DNA from: Escherichia phage vB_EcoM_JB75
Sequence record: MH355584.1
Strand: one strand, 5' to 3'
DNA: 64,000 nucleotides
Shown here piece by piece: positions 80 to 40,802 of this stretch; position 1 is the stretch's first letter, and every line of letters starts with the position of its first letter. The notes under the pieces were generated by a model, which had not been told where the DNA came from, searched no databases, and saw nothing but the letters and a program-made list of their open reading frames with translations. The position numbers and the translations under genes are program-made.

Positions 80-889
80 TTAGAAACGAGATGCGACTTT
101 CGCATATACACTTACAATATCTTCTGCACCTTGTGCAGATTTATCTTCTACAGCTTCAGTGACGAAATTCAGTCCGGCTGCTTCAGTATCAGGAGTATTT
201 ATACTCTCAGTAATAGTGCTTTCATCTTTATTAGATTTCTTCACCATTTCTACGATTGCACTCAATTTACTTGAGAATGCATCTGAATAATCCATACCTT
301 CGACCAGAGCAGAGACTTTTTCTTTTTGAGACTCAGTCAGATCTTTAGTACTTTCGCTCAATGCCACTTCACGCTGCACATAATTGATATATGCGTCACG
401 CTTATTGAGTTCTTCGAACAGACGAGCTGATTCTTCTTTATGTTCTTGCAGTTCTTCTTCCATTTCAGCTACAACATCAACTGATTCTTCTGGAACAACA
501 ACGTTGTGTTCAACGAAGAGCTCTTTCAATCCACCAAGCATGGATTCAAACAGTTCGGCTTTGATACCTTTATCTACTGCTAATTTATTTTCAGTGAGCC
601 ATTCTTTTGCAAGATGGTCAAGGAATTTAGAAGCTTGCTCAGCGATTTTCTTCTCAGCTTTTTCTTCTGCTTCTTCTTTATTTTTTTCTACTTCTTCTTC
701 TGCTTTTTCAGCAATTTTAGCGATATGAGATTCAGCTAATTTAACGGCGTGCTGCTTGACGGTAGCTTCGAATACAGTGCCGAAAGTTTCTTTTGCTTCC
801 GGAGAAATATTAACTGATTCGAAAATACTATCAAGAGCAACGGAAGCATCAATTTTTTGCGCTTCAGCAATCAGTTGTTCTTTAAGCAT
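80..889 (-). CDS. 22: prohead core scaffold protein gp22
   Basis: 269 aa acidic, helical, Glu/Lys-rich protein; size and position between 21 and 23 as in T4. Confidence 0.85.
   Translation of the reverse strand: MLKEQLIAEAQKIDASVALDSIFESVNISPEAKETFGTVFEATVKQHAVKLAESHIAKIAEKAEEEVEKNKEEAEEKAEKKIAEQASKFLDHLAKEWLTENKLAVDKGIKAELFESMLGGLKELFVEHNVVVPEESVDVVAEMEEELQEHKEESARLFEELNKRDAYINYVQREVALSESTKDLTESQKEKVSALVEGMDYSDAFSSKLSAIVEMVKKSNKDESTITESINTPDTEAAGLNFVTEAVEDKSAQGAEDIVSVYAKVASRF
196..203 (-). promoter_or_regulatory. possible late promoter TATAAATA inside gene 22, upstream of gene 23
   Basis: Exact motif about 135 nt upstream of gene 23 start; could be chance. Confidence 0.35.
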
Positions 890-916: not shown

Positions 917-924
917 TATTTATA
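917..924 (-). promoter_or_regulatory. late promoter TATAAATA upstream of gene 22
   Basis: Exact motif about 30 nt upstream of gene 22 start, overlapping gene 21 stop. Confidence 0.5.
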
Positions 925-1558
925 ACGCTTTTTTCATGGCCTCTGCGAGAGCCATATAGGCGTCATCGGCACTTGTATCGGCTTCCGCCGTCTGTGATTC
1001 GGTAATTTCCTTAGGAGTTACCCATGCATCTGGAGCACTTGGACCCCATACTGCATCAACACCTACAGTTAATTTGAATCCTTCGTTTACGATACGATAA
1101 CCTTTATTTGTGTCAGTCAATGAACCTAATCCACGAGAAGAAACTCCTGGAATCCATCCGGCACGAATATTAGCTGCTAATTTATCTCCAGGACCGTGGT
1201 CACCTTCAATAACACGAGCTCGTCCGTATACGTCATTTCCTTTCCACCACATATCTTCTATAATGATAGCGGCTTGCATCGGGTCAACATTAGCGCGTGG
1301 AGGATGATTTAATTCTCCGAGAGCTTGTTTAGTTAAAACTTGCTCATTAATATAGTCTTTTACCGCTTTTTCTAATATACGTTTTGGATAAAGACGTTTA
1401 TTTCTATTGACGACTTCCGCTTGCATGAATATTCCTTCGATGTATAAACCCGGTTTTAAACCTAAGTCTTTTCCATCATGAGATTCAAGCATTGGTACGC
1501 CATCAATAATTTCGCCAGGTTGACCCCAAGTTTCAATTAGTAATTGGGGTTCATTCAT
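920..1558 (-). CDS. 21: prohead core protein and maturation protease gp21
   Basis: 212 aa, matches T4 gp21 length and position; shares 1558 with the gene 68 stop. Confidence 0.85.
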   Translation of the reverse strand: MNEPQLLIETWGQPGEIIDGVPMLESHDGKDLGLKPGLYIEGIFMQAEVVNRNKRLYPKRILEKAVKDYINEQVLTKQALGELNHPPRANVDPMQAAIIIEDMWWKGNDVYGRARVIEGDHGPGDKLAANIRAGWIPGVSSRGLGSLTDTNKGYRIVNEGFKLTVGVDAVWGPSAPDAWVTPKEITESQTAEADTSADDAYMALAEAMKKAL

Positions 1559-17818: not shown

Positions 17819-18823
17819 TTAAAATGTAAACAGAATATTGATTTCTTCTGTCTGATCCATTGCCATGATAATAGGTGGCCTATTTTCCATATAAATCATT
17901 TCGCCCGAATGCCTCATTAAATCTTCTGGATCATAATAATCCTTTTCAGCTTTAACGTTTGGATCATTTGGATGAACTTTAGCTTCAAGAGGATTCGTGA
18001 TTATTGATATTTGTCTAAATCCTTTATTTCCCGGCAATGCAGCTTCAGGAAAATAAACTGAATCTAAATATGCTTTAAAACGAATTGTATTAGCTTTAAC
18101 ACGATAAATTAACCCAAAATCATCTTGCTGCCAAGTGAGATTATCTTCATACCCCCATCTAGTTGGGTCTTCTTTTAATTCCTCAGGCCAAGGAACTACG
18201 ATATATTCATTTGTGCATCTATTTATAGATACATCGGGCGGAATCTCAAAAAGATATTCCCAAACATATCCGTCTCCAGGTTCGATTGTTCCTTCCGCAT
18301 CTCCTCGACCTTCAGGAGGAGTCATTGACCTAACAGAAGGAGTCCATTTTCCGCCTAATTTGAGGCATTCATCCTTATTAGTTAAAGATGCTATTGAACA
18401 CATTCCGGTATCAGGAACATCTAAACAACGATATACTAACCAGCCTGCGCCTGATTCAGTAGCGTTGTAAGGAGCTGAGTTACACACTACAATATCGTTA
18501 ATTCTAAATGTGTATGGATCCGGATATCTAGTATCTCCCCAATCTCTGCGAGGAATAACAGCATCAAGCATTGATGGAAGAACTTTTACTGTTCCCATCA
18601 TATGCGTCCACATGTCAGTTACGCCTAATACAGAATCGGTTGGATAAGGTGGGGCAAAGCCCACCTCATTTTCATTTGATGACCACGGTTCTGATCTTCC
18701 AAATGTAATAAAGATAGTGTTTTTATCCGGACCACTTCCAATTGAATTATAAAAATTCAACATTTTTTCTGTTCTAAATTTTGAAGTAACTATCGCACGA
18801 TAGATAACACTTGAATCATTCAT
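17819..18823 (-). CDS. 8: baseplate wedge protein gp8
   Basis: 334 aa, T4 length and position. Confidence 0.85.
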   Translation of the reverse strand: MNDSSVIYRAIVTSKFRTEKMLNFYNSIGSGPDKNTIFITFGRSEPWSSNENEVGFAPPYPTDSVLGVTDMWTHMMGTVKVLPSMLDAVIPRRDWGDTRYPDPYTFRINDIVVCNSAPYNATESGAGWLVYRCLDVPDTGMCSIASLTNKDECLKLGGKWTPSVRSMTPPEGRGDAEGTIEPGDGYVWEYLFEIPPDVSINRCTNEYIVVPWPEELKEDPTRWGYEDNLTWQQDDFGLIYRVKANTIRFKAYLDSVYFPEAALPGNKGFRQISIITNPLEAKVHPNDPNVKAEKDYYDPEDLMRHSGEMIYMENRPPIIMAMDQTEEINILFTF

Positions 18824-21800
18824 CTATTTTAACCTGTGTTGGATTTTCAGGGTCTCTTGGATTTCCTATATTATCTTTTAGACGTTTATTAACTAAATCC
18901 CTAAATTGTGCAAATGTTGTTCCAGATGCATCAAATAGAGGACTCATTAATTTACGTCGTTCAGATGGCAATTGACCTTGAAATATTGAATTATTATTTT
19001 CAGCATTGTAGTCATCAGGAAGAGGATATTTTACACCAGCCATTGGGCCAGGTTCATAAATTGCTTCTCCTGTTACTGAATCATGTTCAATTTCGCCAGT
19101 TGGAGTTAATTTAGCTACTCTATCAGCATATTCAGTAGGCAATCCAGAATCCCATTTGTAGTTTTTATATTTATTAATTATTGTCTCTGTGTGTTTAAGA
19201 GTTAAACCGACATTAATAAACATAGTTAAAAGCGTGATTGCTATAAATCCAAATCCTACTGGATGAACAAAACGAATAACGTCAGATTTCCAACGAGAAG
19301 AAGGTAAATTGGATTTAATTTTCATTACATAATATGATCGACTTCTATTAATATAGTCTATATTATTTTGAAGCAAATCCTTTCCTTTAACCCCACGAAT
19401 AATTTCGCCTTCAAAACTAGGAAGTCTTTCTGCTTTAACTTCTTGCCCTGCTATTAAACGCCCCAAAAGATTATGTATAGTCACGGTCCATTGCAATTTA
19501 CCATTAGAATAACTTCTTTCTATATAAGTAACATTACATCTTCCTGTAGCTGTATAAATCGTTTGTCCTACTAAATCCTCAGTCAAAGAATCAGATTGAA
19601 CGATTATATCATATTCAGTACCAGCTCCAGATTCAATTTCAATTTCAACTTCTTCATTATAAAGAACTTTAAAAAGAAATTTGTATGATGCTTCAATTCC
19701 TTTAGTAGAATAAAAATCATAACTACGTGATTCAAAAAATCTTGCAACAGCATCACGTTTGTCAGCATTTAAATAAATGTTTCTTTTATATATCTCTGAC
19801 CACAAATATTCCCACGCATGCTCTTCTCGTGGATACTGATTACGAATTAAATTTCGTAAATTATTATACTGAGTTCCGTATCCGTCAGAAAGATATTGAA
19901 TATATGCTTCACAAAATGCCTCAAAATTCGAATCCTGCAACAAATAAGAATCAGGCATCATTGTGCCAATTAATGGTCTTAAATCAGGGTCAGCTAATCC
20001 ATGCTCTTCTTCTGGCGACCAAGGAGTCTCATGCTCTTGGTTTTGTAAAAATGCTTTTAAAAATACTCCAGTCGGCTTCCAAATAATTTCTACTGTATCT
20101 CTCACACGATAGTTAAAATCATAATAAGAAATTATTTCACCAGAAGATTTATAAAAAAGCATCCCAGACGCATATTTTTTAAATCCCGTGAATTTAACAT
20201 TTGGCATTACTATCGTGCAATCACCATCATCCCAGTATTCATGAACTAATCTATCTGGTGATGTTTCCGGAATATTTTCTATAACTTTAGTGTATTTTAA
20301 ATCAGCATAAACTACTACAGCTCTATCAGAATTGTTTATCCAACAGCGTGTGTTAGATTTTTTAGACCAGTTAAAGAACGGTTCTGCGTAGTATTTCATT
20401 GGTTGAGGAGTAAAAGTCTCCCAATCAGATTTTTCATCCGCTATAAATGCCATCATATGATAATGCTTATCAGCTAACCATTCACGAGGAAATTCATATT
20501 TAACAGCACCGATTAACTGATATTTTGCTGCAGTTTCAGGGTCATTAACAATGTTATCACTTAAAAATTTAAAATTACTCGAAGATAGAGAAACTAATTT
20601 ACCGTCAGTTGACATATTCGCATATCCAGGTTGAATACGTCTTCTTTCTTCTTCGGTATTACCGAAAACTCTTTTCCATGTTTTCGTGTCTTGATTCAAA
20701 ACATATATTCCTTTATCAGCAGAATCAATTATTTTTGATGTTCTAGGATTAGCATTTAATGTTTCAACTTCACCAATAATAAGAGCAAAAACTTTATCAC
20801 CGATAGAATCCATTTTATAGCATACTGCTTTAGGATTTCCGGTTATAGTCATTGTATCAGGTTCAAAAAGTCTTTCCGAATATGTTGGAGATAATGGATC
20901 AGAATCTATAGGTGCATTACTCGTTTTTATGTATCTAACTTTGTCTCTGGCGACAACGTAAATGTAATCATCGGTGCAAGTAATAGCTTCAGCTATACGA
21001 TACACATTTGCAGGTAATGTAGCATAAGTACCAAAGATTTCAACATCAAATCCTAAATGAAGTTGGTCTCCTAATTTAGCAAATGTTATATCCTGCGAAC
21101 TGAATCTGACATCATCTGCTGACCATCTAACGTCAGTCGATTTACGGCCATAGAAAATCTTATCGTATCCTAGAACGTATGTTGTGTTTGCAGATTGGTA
21201 ATATACAGTCTTAGATAAAGGATATCCTACACGGTCATTGAAGAGCTTTACAGCTTTCCAAGTTTGTCCTTTATCATTTGATACTTTAACTACGGGTTGA
21301 TAACGCTCAAAAAGATATAGAATCCCTTCTGATTCCATCAAATAAACTCGGTTAATATCCTTACATATTTGCTGAATAGAACCTTGTATTTCATGATACT
21401 CGTTTTCACCAATAATAAAATTACTAATTGATGAGACATCAGCATACGATGGGCTGAACTGAAATGATTCATTCATCAACGCAGCCATTATTGTGTCATT
21501 ATTAAAATTAACATAATCAGAATTATTAAGAGTAAATTTTTCCTGAATGAATTTATTGGCTAATTGCATTTCAATCATGTTTTGAAATGTATAAGCGTTT
21601 GTAGCAAAAGTTTCAAACTCTTCGGTATAAATCCAATCAGACTGCTCAAAATCTTGCGCAGCTGTAGCTACTCTGATAATGTATGATGTCAATGGATTAG
21701 CATCATCAAAAAAGAAGCTGTTATTTGCAGTATATCCTAAGTTAATCCATCTGTATTGATTACTCGGGAGATTTTCCCCCGAGTTTGTTTTTGTCTCAGC

Positions 21801-21914: not shown

Positions 21915-23893
21915 TGTGATATAGGCTCCAAATCGATAGTTAAGTATTGTGGACGTAAGTCATTTTCAAATACAATCAGTGAACCATCGCGAGTAAAGAT
22001 AACATCATCGGTTGGGTCAGAATATAATTCAATAGTCTGAACTTCAAATTTTTCAGATGTTAAATTAATTTTAGCGATATTCCAATAAATCATGTCAGCT
22101 GGATAATTTATTTCACCGATAACATAGTATTTGTCGCGTCCATCAGAATTTGCTAATTTGTTAAAATCGTTGCCCGTATACGGCTGAATGTTTTCATTTT
22201 CTGTAACATCGCCAGAATCAAATGGACCAATAATAACTTTACCAATTCCTTTAGAATCTCGGTCTGTTGATACTATACGAACGTCATATAATACATCTTC
22301 TTCTAAACCAGTATCAGGATTTACAACCTTTCGTCCAGAATTAAATGAAAACGTATTAGATTCCATAGAACGATCTTTTATTTGATTATTGTATTTAATA
22401 CCTGCTTCAGGCGTTTTATAGAAGTTTTGTACTTCACGAACAATTTGAATTGTCGCTGATGAGCCAATGATAGAATGATCTGCATCATCTACATATGTCA
22501 ACATCTTAGATTTAGCGAAAGATGAATTAAAAATTTCTACGTCTTCGGTATAATAACGATCAATTTTATCAATTATTTGACCTTCGAGCCACTGTTCGGA
22601 TTCTTGCAGCTTATTTAAAGCATATGTGACTTTTAAATTAGTCTTAATAAAAAGATAATTAGGAGAAATAATTGATGGCGTAATAGGAGCTAAATTATAG
22701 TCTTTGAGATAATTTTTAATATCTTCACGCTGTACGGTAGTTAAATACAGACCTGATTTAGGTTTAGCAGCAATAAATGCATACCCAGGTTTAGTAGAAT
22801 CAGTGAAAGTTTGAACTGCCTGAATAATAGAACCAAATCTCTCTGAAACGAATGTATCATAGTCAGTCGCAGTTACGCAGCGTTGCTGGGTTTCGCGTTT
22901 AATAGTACCCAATTCGCGAATACGCTCAATATCTTCTGGATCACCGCCGCCGTCTGCTCCAACAAAATCTGGGTCATCATTTGGGTTTTCATTAATGTTG
23001 ATGACAGTTATATTTGTCAATGTATCTGCATATGAAAATCCGACTGCGCCATTCGCATCTGCACCGTTAGTACTGATGTACTCAATAACAATCGTAGAGT
23101 TCTGAGTAGGTTTAAGACCTCCAATATAATTAGCAGTCAATGCTCCTTCTGCCGCATTAACGGAAATCTCACCTTCACCAAAATAAAATTCAGTATTTCC
23201 ATCAATAGTTTCACGCATGTAGTAAATTGTTGATGTAGAACCAGCATGAACCATTGACTTTCTTGTCCAGTTAATCCATTCTGCTCCATCAACATACAGC
23301 TTAACTTGGTTTCTATCTATATTTTTGTCATAAATGATAATAGGTGTTAATTTATCATAAATGATTTCAGTTCTTACTATACGTCCCTGGGCCAATTTTA
23401 AACGTGGAAAATATTGGTTATTTTTATCACGAATAGCAATAACGTCTTCGGTAGAAACGAAGTTATATGGATTAACAGAAGTATCTTTTGCATATGCTAA
23501 AAAGCGAGTTCCGCGAGGAATTGTAATGTAATTCCTATTCAATGCGTCGGTGCATGTTAACATAATTTCGGTTTGCGCAGCGGATTTTGAAGTAGGTAAA
23601 TATCCGTTATCTTGTGCAGCTTGAACAACTGAGCTTCGTAAGTTAGCAGTACGCATAAAGCTTTCATATACAGCAGCATTACCAAACTGCTGAATGTACA
23701 GCGTATTATAAGCCAAAAGGTCACACAGAACGTTTAATCTTGAGCCTTCAAAATCATAATCCAAAAATTCATTTTGGCCATTAAGCCATTCAATGAGGTT
23801 TTGTTTTATTTCAGCAAACGTACCCCCGACGAATATCTCGGGAATAGCATTTGCTGTTCTTGTTAATTGATAATTTACAGGGGTATTTGCCAT
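21911..23893 (-). CDS. 6: baseplate wedge protein gp6
   Basis: 660 aa, T4 length and position. Confidence 0.85.
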   Translation of the reverse strand: MANTPVNYQLTRTANAIPEIFVGGTFAEIKQNLIEWLNGQNEFLDYDFEGSRLNVLCDLLAYNTLYIQQFGNAAVYESFMRTANLRSSVVQAAQDNGYLPTSKSAAQTEIMLTCTDALNRNYITIPRGTRFLAYAKDTSVNPYNFVSTEDVIAIRDKNNQYFPRLKLAQGRIVRTEIIYDKLTPIIIYDKNIDRNQVKLYVDGAEWINWTRKSMVHAGSTSTIYYMRETIDGNTEFYFGEGEISVNAAEGALTANYIGGLKPTQNSTIVIEYISTNGADANGAVGFSYADTLTNITVININENPNDDPDFVGADGGGDPEDIERIRELGTIKRETQQRCVTATDYDTFVSERFGSIIQAVQTFTDSTKPGYAFIAAKPKSGLYLTTVQREDIKNYLKDYNLAPITPSIISPNYLFIKTNLKVTYALNKLQESEQWLEGQIIDKIDRYYTEDVEIFNSSFAKSKMLTYVDDADHSIIGSSATIQIVREVQNFYKTPEAGIKYNNQIKDRSMESNTFSFNSGRKVVNPDTGLEEDVLYDVRIVSTDRDSKGIGKVIIGPFDSGDVTENENIQPYTGNDFNKLANSDGRDKYYVIGEINYPADMIYWNIAKINLTSEKFEVQTIELYSDPTDDVIFTRDGSLIVFENDLRPQYLTIDLEPISQ

Positions 23894-23901
23894 TTTAAAT
23901 C

Positions 23902-24195
23902 CTATTTAATGAATACTTTAGATGATGCCTGAGCCACAGTATCACCGCATGATATTGGATCAGCCATTTGAACAGCTTTCTTTCCAGTGACATATACCTT
24001 AGAAGTTCTAGGTTGTGTCACTCCGCCATGTGTTTCATATGGCTTTTTAATTTCTGTATGTTCTGTAATTGGATCGCCTGCTACTAGAACAGCAATTCCT
24101 CCAGTGAATACTTTACTTTGCGTAGCATTCACAACTGTTGGAGGCCACGCTTCATGGCCAGCAGTAACACACTTATCATAACTCAATCCTGACAT
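23902..24195 (-). CDS. 5.4: PAAR-repeat baseplate spike tip protein gp5.4
   Basis: 97 aa small beta-rich protein immediately after gene 5/5.1; T4 gp5.4 length. Confidence 0.8.
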
Positions 24196-30520: not shown

Positions 30521-30778
30521 ATGAAAACTTTCAAAGAGTTTGCTACAAAAACTACTATCACTGAATCTTCCCATGGTATGGAAGTAAAGCTTGGAATGGC
30601 TTTAGCTGAAGCTGAGCGTCTTTTCTCTCGTATTAAAGAACTTGCTGCTGCGGTCGATCCTTCATCTTTTAAAGGAGACCAAACTAAAGTTAAAGCACTT
30701 TTAGCATTATGCTCCGATGCAGGAGAAATTGCTAAAAATGGTTCTAAGATGAAGAAACGATTAGAAGATTTAAAATAA
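30521..30778 (+). CDS. internal-protein-like small protein with capsid-targeting-like N-terminus
   Basis: 85 aa; N-terminus MKTFKEFATKTTITE resembles the T-even IP capsid targeting sequence with a gp21-type ITE cleavage site; own early promoter. Confidence 0.6.
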   Translation: MKTFKEFATKTTITESSHGMEVKLGMALAEAERLFSRIKELAAAVDPSSFKGDQTKVKALLALCSDAGEIAKNGSKMKKRLEDLK

Positions 30779-30854: not shown

Positions 30855-31088
30855 ATGAAAACTTACCAAGAATTTATTGCTGAAACTGCTGATGTAAAAG
30901 TTGAGTTTATTTACTCTGGCAAGAAAGATAAAATGGGTGAAATGCCTCATGGAGTTCTTCGTGATGCATTAGATAATTTCGGTCAACTCGCCGCAGAAGA
31001 TTACGGTGATAAAATTGTTGTTACTGGTCCTGCTGCAGTTATTGAAAAATGGGCAGCAGAAAATAAATCAATTTTTCGTAAAAAATAA
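30855..31088 (+). CDS. internal protein (CTS MKTYQEFIAE)
   Basis: Track ORF from 30843; the ATG at 30855 gives MKTYQEFIAE, the canonical T4 IP capsid targeting sequence; own promoter and SD. Confidence 0.7.
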   Translation: MKTYQEFIAETADVKVEFIYSGKKDKMGEMPHGVLRDALDNFGQLAAEDYGDKIVVTGPAAVIEKWAAENKSIFRKK

Positions 31089-32117: not shown

Positions 32118-32190
32118 TGGGAATTAGCCAAGTTGGTAAGGCATAGCACTTTGACTGCTAGATGCAAAGGTTCGAGTCCTTTATTCCCAG
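32118..32190 (+). tRNA. tRNA-Gln (anticodon UUG)
   Basis: Cloverleaf by eye: acceptor TGGGAAT/ATTCCCA, anticodon arm TAGCA-CTTTGAC-TGCTA, T-loop GGTTCGAGTCC. Confidence 0.8.
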
Positions 32191-32191
32191 C

Positions 32192-32278
32192 GCGAGAATG
32201 GTCAAATTGGTAAAGGCACAGCACTTAAAATGCTGCGGAATGATTTCCTTGTGGGTTCGAGTCCCACTTCTCGCACCA
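32192..32278 (+). tRNA. tRNA-Leu (anticodon UAA)
   Basis: Acceptor GCGAGAA/TTCTCGC, anticodon loop CTTAAAA, long variable arm, encoded CCA. Confidence 0.8.
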
Positions 32279-32283
32279 AATTT

Positions 32284-32357
<74 letters not shown>

Positions 32358-32367
32358 ATTTAATTTA

Positions 32368-32441
32368 CTCCGTGTAGCTCAGTTTGGTAGAGCGTCTGCT
32401 TTGGGAGCAGAATGTCGTAGGTTCAAATCCTGCCACGGAGA
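32368..32441 (+). tRNA. tRNA-Pro (anticodon UGG)
   Basis: Acceptor CTCCGTG/CACGGAG, anticodon arm TCTGC-TTTGGGA-GCAGA, T-loop GGTTCAAATCC. Confidence 0.8.
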
Positions 32442-32443
32442 CT

Positions 32444-32533
32444 GGAGGCGTGGCAGAGTGGTTTAATGCACCGGTCTTGAAAACCGGCAGTCGCTCCGGC
32501 GACTCATAGGTTCAAATCCTATCGCCTCCGCCA
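32444..32533 (+). tRNA. tRNA-Ser (anticodon UGA)
   Basis: Acceptor GGAGGCG/CGCCTCC, anticodon loop CTTGAAA, long variable arm, encoded CCA. Confidence 0.8.
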
Positions 32534-32538
32534 GTTTT

Positions 32539-32614
32539 GCTGATTTAGCTCAGTAGGTAGAGCACCTCACTTGTAATGAGGACGTCGGCGGTTCGATTCC
32601 GTCAATCAGCACCA
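32539..32614 (+). tRNA. tRNA-Thr (anticodon UGU)
   Basis: Acceptor GCTGATT/AATCAGC, anticodon arm CCTCA-CTTGTAA-TGAGG, encoded CCA. Confidence 0.8.
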
Positions 32615-32615
32615 A

Positions 32616-32690
32616 GGCCCTGTAGCTGGAAGGTTCAAGCAAGCGACTCATAATCGCCAGATGGTGGTTCAATTCCACCCAGGGCCACCA
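32616..32690 (+). tRNA. tRNA-Ile/Met (anticodon CAU; T4-type tRNA-Ile reads AUA after modification)
   Basis: Acceptor GGCCCTG/CAGGGCC, anticodon loop CTCATAA, T-loop GGTTCAATTCC, encoded CCA. Confidence 0.7.
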
Positions 32691-32703
32691 AATTAAGAAT
32701 TAA

Positions 32704-32790
32704 GGGGAGTTATCCCGTAGAGGTAGCGGTGTGGACTGTAAATCCATTGTCATTGCGACTCGGGTGGTTCGACTCCATCACTCCCCACCA
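32704..32790 (+). tRNA. tRNA-Tyr-like (anticodon GUA), long-variable-arm type
   Basis: Acceptor GGGGAGT/ACTCCCC, anticodon arm GTGGA-CTGTAAA-TCCAT, variable arm, T-arm GGTGG-TTCGACT-CCATC, CCA; D-arm is weak so it could be a variant or pseudo-tRNA. Confidence 0.55.
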
Positions 32791-32794
32791 ATTT

Positions 32795-32869
32795 GGATGT
32801 GTAGCTCAGTGGTAGAGCAGTTGACTGTTAATCAATTGGTCCATGGTTCGAATCCATGCATGTCCGCCA
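32795..32869 (+). tRNA. tRNA-Asn (anticodon GUU)
   Basis: Acceptor GGATGTG/CATGTCC (two GU pairs), D-arm GCTC-AGTGGT-AGAGC, anticodon loop CTGTTAA, T-arm CATGG-TTCGAAT-CCATG, CCA. Confidence 0.7.
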
Positions 32870-32873
32870 AATA

Positions 32874-32949
32874 CGAGGCATAGCTCAGAAGGAAGAGCAA
32901 GGACCTTCTAAGTCCTGGGTCGTAGGTTCGATCCCTACTGCCTCGACCA
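32874..32949 (+). tRNA. tRNA-Arg (anticodon UCU)
   Basis: Acceptor CGAGGCA/TGCCTCG, anticodon arm AGGAC-CTTCTAA-GTCCT, T-arm GTAGG-TTCGATC-CCTAC, CCA. Confidence 0.8.
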
Positions 32950-33938: not shown

Positions 33939-34502
33939 ATGAAAACCTATGCCGAATTTTTAACCGAAGCAGCAAAATTACCATCTGAAGCAGATCTTAC
34001 TAAAGTATTCTTCCAATTGGACCCAAAAGACCGCGGCGATTTTCTTAAGTGGAAAGCTAAAGCTATTGAAATGTACAACATCGATAATAGTTCTTTTACA
34101 ATGAGTCAAGAAAATAAATTCAATAAAGCATTTTTCAAAATTTCTAAGAAATTGGCATCTGGCGCTCAGGTTCCTAAATCTGTGTTAGCTACTCCTGAAC
34201 GCGCACCTGTTAAAATTTCTAAGAATATGTTCGACACTAAAAAATACGTTAATGCTTTGAATAAAGCTCTTGATGCATTGGATGATGCAAAGAAGGCAGC
34301 CCGCGATCTTCAAGACGTGTACACCGATTTTGACCGCAAAACTAAAGGTTCTATTTCAAATAGCGAACGCAATAGTGTAAGTGTTTATTCTGATAGCCTT
34401 GATGTTCTTGGCGATGCGTATACTGAAATTAAAAATCGTATTAACACTGCATCTAAGCTAAAAGCTGCTGCAGAAGCTATAATAACTAAACTAGGTAAAT
34501 AA
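33939..34502 (+). CDS. internal-protein-like protein (CTS-like MKTYAEFLTEA)
   Basis: 187 aa; CTS-like N-terminus with LTE cleavage motif; terminator follows. Confidence 0.6.
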   Translation: MKTYAEFLTEAAKLPSEADLTKVFFQLDPKDRGDFLKWKAKAIEMYNIDNSSFTMSQENKFNKAFFKISKKLASGAQVPKSVLATPERAPVKISKNMFDTKKYVNALNKALDALDDAKKAARDLQDVYTDFDRKTKGSISNSERNSVSVYSDSLDVLGDAYTEIKNRINTASKLKAAAEAIITKLGK

Positions 34503-37882: not shown

Positions 37883-38851
<969 letters not shown>

Positions 38852-38886
38852 AGTTGTTTACTTTCTCCTAGAATTGTGATAGTATA
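38852..38886 (+). promoter_or_regulatory. T4-type early promoter
   Basis: AGTTGTTTACTTT ... TGTGATAGTATATT. Confidence 0.5.
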
Positions 38887-38939
38887 TTCACAGTTGCTTG
38901 AAGAGACAAATTACTAATTAAAATATTTAAAGGAAACAT

Positions 38940-39413
38940 ATGAAAACATATCAAGAATTTATCACTGAAGCAGCTATTAATTCTCAAATTATTGCTGAAT
39001 CTTTTACTGATCTTTTGAAATTTAAAAAAGGTCAAAAAATTACTGCTGTATTGGATGATGGTACAGAAGTTGAGATGGATGTACAGGGATATAATTATGC
39101 AGTAGATGGAAAACTGTATAATAAATCTCATGCTAAATTTGATTCATTTGACGACTTTGTTAATACAGTTGAAGATGAAAAAACTCGTCGATCCATTGCA
39201 ACTGGTGATGCTAAGGTTCTTATGGCACATGGTCATGAACGCATTCGCGCTAAACAGAATAAAATGGGTGAAGATAATTTTGCATTAGTTGGTTATCAAT
39301 CTGGTAAACAAACTTATGGCTATCAACGTACTGCTACAATGTATAATAAAAATGGTAAAATTGCCTTTGTAAATAGTAAAGGTTCTATTCAGTACGTTAA
39401 ATCGTTCAAATAA
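38940..39413 (+). CDS. internal protein (CTS MKTYQEFITEA), in the ipIII position
   Basis: 157 aa; canonical CTS with ITE cleavage site; early promoter upstream. Confidence 0.7.
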   Translation: MKTYQEFITEAAINSQIIAESFTDLLKFKKGQKITAVLDDGTEVEMDVQGYNYAVDGKLYNKSHAKFDSFDDFVNTVEDEKTRRSIATGDAKVLMAHGHERIRAKQNKMGEDNFALVGYQSGKQTYGYQRTATMYNKNGKIAFVNSKGSIQYVKSFK

Positions 39414-39566
39414 GCAAATAAGAAATATGGGAACAAACTGGACCTCATGATTCTATGAGGGATTCCCGCCAACCTGTAATAAGGTCGAGCCTGAGTGCGG
39501 TAATGGGTAAATACAGAAATGGACAATTCATGCGCCATGGAATGGCCCAAATTTAGAGAGAATAAA

Positions 39567-40106
39567 ATGAGAACATTTTTAACTGGTCCTTATCTATCCC
39601 TGATGAATGCTTTTACACACCATTCTGATGCTAGAGTAGAAGAAATTTGTAAAAACGATTATATCCCACCATTTGAAGACTTACTTAAACAGTATTGCAC
39701 ACTTCGACTAGATGGTGGACGTCAATCCGGTAAATCAATTGCTGTGACTAACTTCGCTGCTAATTGGTTGTATGATGGCGGAACAGTTATTGTTCTTTCT
39801 AATACTTCAGCTTACGCTAAAATTTCTGCAAATAACATTAAAAAGGAATTTTCGCGTTATTCTAATGATGATATACGTTTTCGTTTATTTACTGATTCTG
39901 TGCGCAGTTTTATTGGTAATAAAGGAAGCAAGTTCAGAGGTTTATCGCTTTCACGAATTTTGTATATAATTGATGAGCCTGTTAAATCTCCTGATATGGA
40001 TAAAATTTACGATATTCATATTGAAACTGTGCAACACTGCTGCAATAGTAAATGTTGCATTGGTGGTATTACTCGTCCACAGTTTTTCGTAATCGGAATG
40101 CAATGA
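39567..40106 (+). CDS. small P-loop NTPase with C-terminal Cys cluster
   Basis: Walker A GGRQSGKS, Walker B ILYIIDEP, C-terminal HCCNSKCC; start taken at ATG 39567 behind GAGAG. Confidence 0.55.
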   Translation: MRTFLTGPYLSLMNAFTHHSDARVEEICKNDYIPPFEDLLKQYCTLRLDGGRQSGKSIAVTNFAANWLYDGGTVIVLSNTSAYAKISANNIKKEFSRYSNDDIRFRLFTDSVRSFIGNKGSKFRGLSLSRILYIIDEPVKSPDMDKIYDIHIETVQHCCNSKCCIGGITRPQFFVIGMQ

Positions 40107-40432
40107 TGACAGACACTCAGCTTTTCGAATATCTTTATTTTTCGCCAAAAACTATTAAAAATAAATTGGTGAATCATTTTGAAATTTTAGCAAATAATAA
40201 CATTTTGAGCGAATTTTATCCCAAGCAATACAAATTACAAAAAGGTGTATTCAAAGGATGCAGAGTTTTGTGCACTGCTCCTAATGCAAGATTAATGAAT
40301 AAAATTCCGTATTTTACCATGGAATTTATTGATGGACCTTTTAAAGGATTAATTACGCAAAGTTTAATGGCATATGATTCTGAGCCGTTTTTAATTAAAG
40401 AACAATCTTGGATAAATTTATTTTCTAATTGA
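40103..40432 (+). CDS. hypothetical protein, translationally coupled to the P-loop NTPase
   Basis: ATGA overlap with upstream stop; 109 aa. Confidence 0.5.
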
Positions 40433-40439
40433 GGTTTAT

Positions 40440-40802
40440 ATGAAAGCATATCAAATTCTTGAAGGCACACACAAAGGCACTATTTATTTTGAAGATGGTA
40501 TTCAAGCACGAATTATCGTTTCTAAAACCTTTAAAGAGGACTCTTTTGTAGACCCAGAAATTTTCTATGGTTTGCATGCCCGTGAAATTGAAATTGAGCA
40601 ACAGCCTACAGTTAAAATTGAAGGTGGTCAACACCTGAACGTTAACGTTCTGCGTCGTGAAACTCTGGAAGATGCAGTTAAGCATCCGGAAAAATATCCG
40701 CAGCTGACCATCCGTGTATCCGGTTATGCAGTTCGCTTTAACTCTCTGACTCCGGAACAGCAGCGCGACGTTATCGCTCGTACCTTTACCGAGAGTTTGT
40801 AA
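40440..40802 (+). CDS. autonomous glycyl radical cofactor (GrcA/YfiD-like; T4 Y06I-type)
   Basis: 120 aa; C-terminal ~60 residues match E. coli YfiD/GrcA as I recall it, including the radical glycine in RVSGYAVRF. Confidence 0.85.

Follow-up and report, generated by a model that had tools for sequence, protein, structure and literature searches.

An Ip4/DUF7412 family internal head protein gene in the lysozyme-to-vs.8 interval of a Tequatrovirus genome segment

Among T-even phages, cassette polymorphism has its textbook case in the internal protein (ip) loci, and denV is lacking in many T4 relatives. In T4 itself, the genes downstream of lysozyme run in the order e-ipIII-ipII-denV-vs.8-vs.7-vs.6. 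The stretch of DNA analysed here (64 kb in length and referred to throughout as the window) is a Tequatrovirus segment that extends from head genes to the nrd region, and an earlier note on its sequence had drawn attention to a 157-codon gene directly after lysozyme, describing it as a divergent internal protein in the ipIII position with neither ipII nor denV behind it. The locus thus raises the questions of what this gene encodes, whether it is a form of ipIII, and how the arrangement around it relates to that of T4. The features at the left of the interval are as follows.

38357..38851, plus strand: e, T4-type lysozyme (97% amino acid identity to T4 e; Pfam Phage_lysozyme)
38852..38939, plus strand: ip4 upstream module, an early-type promoter-like element and the ribosome-binding site (RBS) AAGGAAA
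38940..39413, plus strand: ip4, the gene under study
38940..38969, plus strand: capsid targeting sequence, codons 1 to 10, MKTYQEFITE
38991..38999, plus strand: possible second gp21 cleavage motif, I18-A19-E20↓S21 (the arrow marks the cut)

The gene after lysozyme is an intact ORF of 157 amino acids that starts with ATG behind a strong RBS (AAGGAAA), 88 nt past the end of e, and the targeting sequence that the earlier note had read at its start (MKTYQEFITEA) is present as described. Its product is the same as RB32 Ip4 at 157/157 positions (100%) and shares 99% identity with K3 Ip4 (UniProt Q38388). The Pfam family DUF7412 (PF24183) covers residues 1 to 157 with a score of 319.4 bits against a curated cut-off of 27 (E 5.7e-96), a full-length match that places the protein in the Ip4/DUF7412 family, and PHROG 3155, annotated as "internal virion protein," matches the ORF with an E value of 6e-102. 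The segment 38940..39413 is therefore ip4, encoding a T-even internal head protein of the Ip4/DUF7412 family. The gene is already known, being named Ip4 in RB32, AR1, PP01, and K3 and "internal virion protein" in RefSeq, and there is no difference of substance between the proteins of RB32, T2, and K3 and that of the window. No paper and no experiment on the protein came up when the literature was searched for the name Ip4. A tblastn search with the mature part of Ip4 gave matches in 470 phage records, of which 291 reach at least 99% identity; among these 291 are T2, in which mature Ip4 is identical, and many RB, Shigella, and Yersinia Tequatroviruses. Some 160 further records, from Klebsiella, Salmonella, and Serratia relatives, fall at 60 to 80% identity. 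The family is small, forming 14 clusters in large protein collections and being confined to such phages; an exhaustive profile search brought in a further three homologues, distant ones at 34 to 36% identity.

The N terminus of Ip4 carries the hallmark of the T4 internal proteins. The first 11 residues, MKTYQEFITEA, equal the T4 IPIII and IPII propeptide, MKTYQEFIAEA, at 10 of 11 positions, the single substitution being A9T. With up to three substitutions allowed, a six-frame translation of the window contains the motif at three places, all of them at the first codon of an ORF, and the match is therefore not due to chance. For entry into the prohead core, IPIII needs no more than its first 10 residues (reviews PMC9026906, PMC3012670), and experiments on IPIII have shown residues 4 and 7 to be important in targeting and residues 8 and 10 in processing (PMC9026906). 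All four (Y4, F7, I8, and E10) are identical in Ip4, which places its N terminus among the targeting sequences; E10 is kept in at least 90% of Ip4 homologues, and even the distant homologues at 34 to 36% identity retain a targeting-like N terminus, M-NF-x-x-FLNE↓S.

Processing of internal proteins depends on the prohead protease gp21, which cleaves C-terminal to Glu (reviews PMC9026906, PMC3012670). As is expected of a phage with internal proteins, gp21 and the scaffolding core protein gp22 are encoded by the same phage, at the other end of the window.

80..889, minus strand: gp22 scaffolding core protein (Pfam T4_CASP, E 5e-90)
920..1558, minus strand: gp21 prohead protease (Peptidase_S77, E 1.5e-111)

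The retention of Y4, F7, I8, and E10 suggests that Ip4 would follow the same route as IPIII, with a predicted gp21 cut after Glu10 (I-T-E↓A). A second cut may follow Glu20. This residue is invariant in 13/13 close homologues and nearly so when the distant ones are included, and across the family it lies in a motif of I, L, or M two residues before the Glu, then any residue, and then E↓S or E↓A. Mature Ip4 has a computed mass of 15.5 to 16.5 kDa and a pI of 9.1 to 9.3, with 22 Lys and Arg residues in total.

An AlphaFold model of Ip4 built from 15 sequences, the three distant homologues among them, reached a mean pLDDT of 83.8 and a pTM of 0.78; a model from the 13 close homologues alone gave a pLDDT of 50 and was not used. 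In the model, the propeptide region is disordered or helical, and behind it comes a compact beta-rich domain into which three helices are inserted. Foldseek gave no match in the PDB at an E value of 0.001 or below, and K3 Ip4 was the sole structural match in BFVD (TM 0.96). Searches of PDB chain sequences and with PADLOC likewise returned nothing meaningful. With no informative neighbour, the model speaks neither for nor against an inhibitor role. The positions that never vary within the family are G31, V48, G50, K58, N61, K62, A65, L94, N107, K108, A115, Q120, G122, G127, Y128, and T131. They contain no obvious catalytic set, and for this reason they would seem to fit a binding protein better than an enzyme.

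Overall, we favour, with a probability of roughly 0.8, the reading in which ip4, a member of a known family, occupies a cassette slot, and its product is packaged, injected, and, by analogy, directed against host defence. Each internal protein is present in hundreds of copies in the head and is ejected with the DNA (reviews PMC9026906, PMC3012670). From T4 head biology, the 10-residue targeting sequence would steer the Ip4 precursor into the prohead's scaffolding core of gp22, gp21 would trim the precursor after Glu10 and possibly again after Glu20, and the basic mature protein would, by analogy, stay in the head with the DNA and be injected with it. Once in the cell, Ip4 would act as a first-response anti-defence factor, likeliest against a variant of the Type IV (modification-dependent) nucleases.

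The precedents for such a role are well documented. Ip1, Ip2, and Ip3 are inhibitors of GmrSD, each of a different variant (PMC12373910), IPIII remains active in the cytoplasm without its targeting sequence (PMC9391042), and Bas37_0260, a targeting-sequence protein, inhibits McrBC (bioRxiv 10.1101/2025.11.20.689424). T-even internal proteins have been described as diverse defence proteins with the targeting sequence alone in common (PMC3012670). T4 IPI*, a GmrSD inhibitor, and Bas37_0260 both correspond to what is proposed for Ip4, namely, packaged and injected first-response inhibitors with a targeting sequence, but they differ from it in their location (the ipI locus near 57B), in their unrelated sequences, and in having a demonstrated function. 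The proteins encoded by ip4 to ip10 showed no reproducible interaction with representatives of the GmrSD groups (PMC12373910, Supplementary Fig. 9), whereas IPIII inhibits ECOR17 GmrS1/GmrSD2 and IPII inhibits ECOR21 GmrSD/BrxU. By analogy with these proteins, we consider an anti-defence role for Ip4, most likely against a Type IV nuclease variant not yet paired with it, to be somewhat better than an even bet. The near invariance of Ip4 in Tequatrovirus (the 291 records at 99% identity or above) counts against an arms race, the rapid divergence that one might bring being absent, although the presence/absence polymorphism of the gene fits one. A narrower proposal, that Ip4 is an injected inhibitor, with a fold that has no detectable relative among solved or predicted viral structures, of a defence system not yet paired with any phage counter-measure, is tentative and falls a little short of even odds. 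The system in question might be a subtype of Type IV nuclease not represented in the GmrSD screen or a first-response system of another kind. If it is true, the approximately 300 near-identical Tequatrovirus copies of Ip4 would mark a widespread host target still to be identified. In practical terms, a confident model without known relatives makes Ip4 a reasonable candidate for a targeted anti-defence screen.

A structural function is the alternative that fares best, if still an unlikely one: Ip4 would be packaged by way of its targeting sequence but would serve to neutralise DNA charge or to assist core or head assembly, with no specific host target. The pI of 9.1 to 9.3 and the 22 Lys and Arg residues of the mature protein suit such a function, as do the contacts that lysines of internal proteins make with DNA phosphates in the head (PMC3012670), the slower head assembly and smaller burst of T4 IPIII mutants (PMC9026906), the extreme conservation of Ip4, and the negative outcome for ip4 to ip10 in the GmrSD screen (PMC12373910). 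However, all targeting-sequence proteins of known function inhibit Type IV restriction (PMC12373910, bioRxiv 10.1101/2025.11.20.689424), and the ip genes are dispensable on laboratory hosts (PMC9026906). Moreover, ip4 is present in some close relatives and absent from others, in the manner of accessory anti-defence genes, and the predicted structure is a compact, well-folded beta-rich domain and not a disordered polycation.

If Ip4 is an internal protein that probably acts like IPIII and IPII, is it simply one of them in diverged form? T4 IPIII and IPII do share with it a 10-residue targeting sequence, an upstream promoter/RBS module, a basic mature protein, and a position downstream of e, but their mature parts are unrelated to mature Ip4 in sequence. 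In BLASTP comparisons of Ip4 with T4 IPIII, only residues 1 to 13 align, and hhalign of the Ip4 family profile with IPIII gave a probability of 30% over 33 columns. The full-length identity to IPIII that would have made this gene an ordinary ipIII is thus absent, in line with the view of the earlier note that the body of the protein is unlike IPIII. The match of Ip4 to IPII has an E value of 7e-7 because of the propeptide and rises to 0.69 without it, and tblastn of the window with T4 IPII and IPIII gave matches through the propeptide only. Mature Ip4 consequently belongs to neither the IPIII nor the IPII family. The restriction of similarity to the propeptide indicates, at the level of sequence, that Ip4 is not a diverged IPIII but a distinct mature protein fitted with a shared address tag. 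The earlier description is right about the position of the gene, with the qualification that the gene belongs to a separate family, Ip4/DUF7412.

The boundaries of the difference from T4 are sharp. Features at the right of the interval are listed below.

39414..39424, plus strand: right junction, 11 nt from the ip4 stop codon to the return of T4 homology
39455..39556, plus strand: 33-codon ORF, remnant of the N-terminal extension annotated on T4 vs.8
39567..40106, plus strand: vs.8, P-loop protein (90% amino acid identity to T4 vs.8 residues 26 to 219)
40103..40432, plus strand: vs.7 (99% identical to T4 vs.7)
40440..40802, plus strand: vs.6, GrcA-like glycyl-radical cofactor (Pfam Gly_radical)

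On the left, the gene upstream of e is nudE, encoding a Nudix hydrolase, and a late-promoter core, TATAAATA, lies at 38323, upstream of e. From e into ip4, the window aligns to T4 e..ipIII at approximately 94% DNA identity up to 38971, in codon 11. On the right, T4 homology returns (96% in blastn) at 39425, one base past the position of the T4 denV stop codon, and vs.7-vs.6 (40103..40802) is collinear with T4. The block that differs is thus mature ipIII, ipII, and denV in T4 and mature ip4 in the window. Because T4 homology ends at about codon 11 and resumes after denV, the e-to-vs.8 interval can be regarded as a cassette slot, with e as its conserved left anchor and vs.8 as its conserved right anchor.

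It is very improbable that ip4 is the T4 ipIII orthologue drifted past recognition, with ipII and denV simply lost. In favour of drift, the gene lies directly after e, as T4 ipIII does, and its upstream region and targeting sequence are approximately 94% identical to those of ipIII. Against it, similarity is lacking past residue 13 (with a profile probability of 30% over 33 columns), and DNA identity, at approximately 94% up to codon 11, vanishes there over a few bases, an abrupt loss that is the signature of replacement and not of drift. In addition, ip4-like and ipIII-like genes occur together in one Jiaodavirus locus, and Ip4 homologues make up Pfam and PHROG families of their own.

The means of replacement may lie in the shared upstream module. 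A direct pattern search found a T4 early-type promoter-like motif, GTTTAC-N18-TAGTAT with a TG extension, at 38856..38885, and this element presumably functions as an early-type promoter for ip4; in a scan for generic sigma-70 promoters, sites were no more frequent than in shuffled sequence. The same upstream module and propeptide precede T4 ipII (77% identity over 122 nt). A module of promoter, RBS, and targeting sequence repeated before each ip gene would supply the homology for swap, gain, and loss of cassettes, and we infer that it is the substrate of ip cassette exchange. Such module-driven exchange would explain the presence of ip4 alone here and of ipIII-ipII-denV in T4.

The earlier note had also regarded the locus as remodelled relative to T4, with a P-loop module in place of ipII and denV. 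The P-loop itself is genuine (Walker A motif GGRQSGKS at 39714..39737) and identifies the gene as vs.8, with a match to PHROG 1488 and a weak one to PHROG 2, the terminase large-subunit ATPase, but vs.8 follows denV in T4 too and has replaced nothing. The synteny comparison contrasted e-ipIII-ipII-denV-vs.8 in T4 with e-ip4-vs.8 in the window, in RB32, in T2, and in OE5505 (the closest relative of the window's phage), and in these genomes the order continues alike through vs.7 to vs.6. With contiguity defined as at least 80% coverage in one place, the 2.2-kb e-ip4-vs.8-vs.7 stretch was contiguous in 283 phage records and the T4 ipIII-ipII-denV block in only 31, mostly T4 isolates plus RB55 and RB59. 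It follows that, with regard to ip4, T4 represents the minority or unusual state and the window the common layout, and that the cassette replacement between e and vs.8, real as it is, counts as remodelling only with T4 as the reference. Among the eight e..vs.8 layouts sampled for comparison, the slot is filled by ip10-ip4 in PP01 and Sf25, by denV-ip4 in Sf21, and by orf-denV-ip4 in a Salmonella Gelderlandvirus; in a Klebsiella Jiaodavirus, it contains three ip genes, one of them ip4-like and one ipIII-like, and a denV-like gene follows further along. Hence, ip4 lies just downstream of e in at least three genera of Tevenvirinae. Taken as a whole, the feature is real but ordinary: the gene already has a name, and its layout is the one most often met with at this familiar polymorphic locus.

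The absence of ipII and denV held up on finer inspection. T4 denV, the gene for endonuclease V (a pyrimidine-dimer glycosylase), sits at the right-hand end of the e-to-vs.8 interval, a place at which the window has no denV, and tblastn of the 64-kb window with T4 DenV gave no match at an E value of 10 or below. In Sf21 and a Gelderlandvirus, denV adjoins ip4, and DenV is otherwise widespread, with matches in 1119 phage records. A tblastn search of the complete OE5505 genome (168,756 bp) found no DenV match at an E value of 1 or below. The remainder of the window's own genome is likely to lack denV too, rather than certain to, because the genome searched in full is that of OE5505 and not that of the window's phage itself.

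That ip4 might be a non-functional relic, with a targeting sequence retained on a protein that is unexpressed or unpackaged, is as remote a prospect as drift from ipIII, given the intact ORF and strong RBS, the essential invariance of Ip4 in approximately 300 genomes and its 61 to 82% identity in other genera, and the spread of invariant residues over a domain that is predicted to fold confidently.

Between ip4 and vs.8 lies a spacer of 153 nt. T4 vs.8 is annotated with a 41-amino-acid N-terminal extension, and the corresponding DNA of the window (39455..39566) is still approximately 93% identical. In tblastn, amino acids 1 to 32 of T4 vs.8 match the 33-codon ORF of the window at 94% identity in a frame that differs from that of the rest of vs.8; an 8-nt indel and a TAG codon part the two in the window, RB32, and OE5505, and OE5505 annotates the small ORF as a separate CDS of 102 nt. 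The alignments thus equate the spacer with DNA that in T4 forms the 5' part of the annotated beginning of vs.8. It may be that the extension in T4 is not genuinely coding; otherwise, what has been conserved is a short ORF or leader upstream of vs.8. A structured RNA and a terminator were also considered for this spacer and rejected: the fold of 39414..39575 had a z score of -0.11 with no Rfam match of note, and there was no terminator-like site on the plus strand.

Several other genes in the window have the appearance of internal-protein genes. At the ipI locus, downstream of a 57B-type gene, two internal-protein genes replace T4 ipI. One (30521..30778, plus strand) encodes an 85-amino-acid Ip5-like protein with a degenerate propeptide (MKTFKEFATKTTITE↓S), and the other (30855..31088, plus strand) encodes a 77-amino-acid protein with a perfect targeting sequence, a match to PHROG 8111, and a near-neutral mature pI of 6.5. 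Between the tRNA cluster and the e.x genes, a 187-amino-acid ORF (33939..34502, plus strand) has the targeting-like start MKTYAEFLTE↓AAK and a mature pI of 9.5, and its product is a candidate unannotated internal protein. This ORF matches PHROG 2280 ("unknown function") and is found in 164 Tequatrovirus records; in all 20 of those sampled it was called "hypothetical protein" or left unannotated, and OE5505 splits the region into two CDS.

The tRNA cluster (32118..32949, plus strand) is a single uninterrupted array of ten tRNA genes, for Gln, Leu, Gly, Pro, Ser, Thr, Met/Ile-CAU, Tyr, Asn, and Arg. In OE5505, the set differs in that His is present and Gln and Thr are not annotated, and the array has an extra CDS of 483 nt inside it and an HNH endonuclease gene beside it. 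OE5505 is approximately 98% identical to the window overall and 100% identical over the 2.2 kb from e to vs.7, but it differs in the tRNA region. The phage collection held no record identical to the window as a whole and none matching 18 kb exactly. These differences from OE5505 in the tRNA region show the window's phage to be a mosaic that is absent as such from the phage collection.

Two further observations concern parts of the OE5505 genome (record L004) that lie outside the window. By the primase gene, a 54-amino-acid ORF (18779..18943, minus strand) starts with MKTYKEFIKED, thus having Asp after Glu10, and continues into a low-complexity acidic and lysine-rich tail; it matches PHROG 1823, of unknown function. 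OE5505 also carries, besides an alpha-glucosyltransferase, a gene annotated as beta-glucosyl-HMC-alpha-glucosyltransferase (23201..24043, minus strand). Its DNA glucosylation is of the T2/T6 type rather than the T4 type, a difference that may be relevant to the range of modification-dependent nucleases facing its internal proteins.
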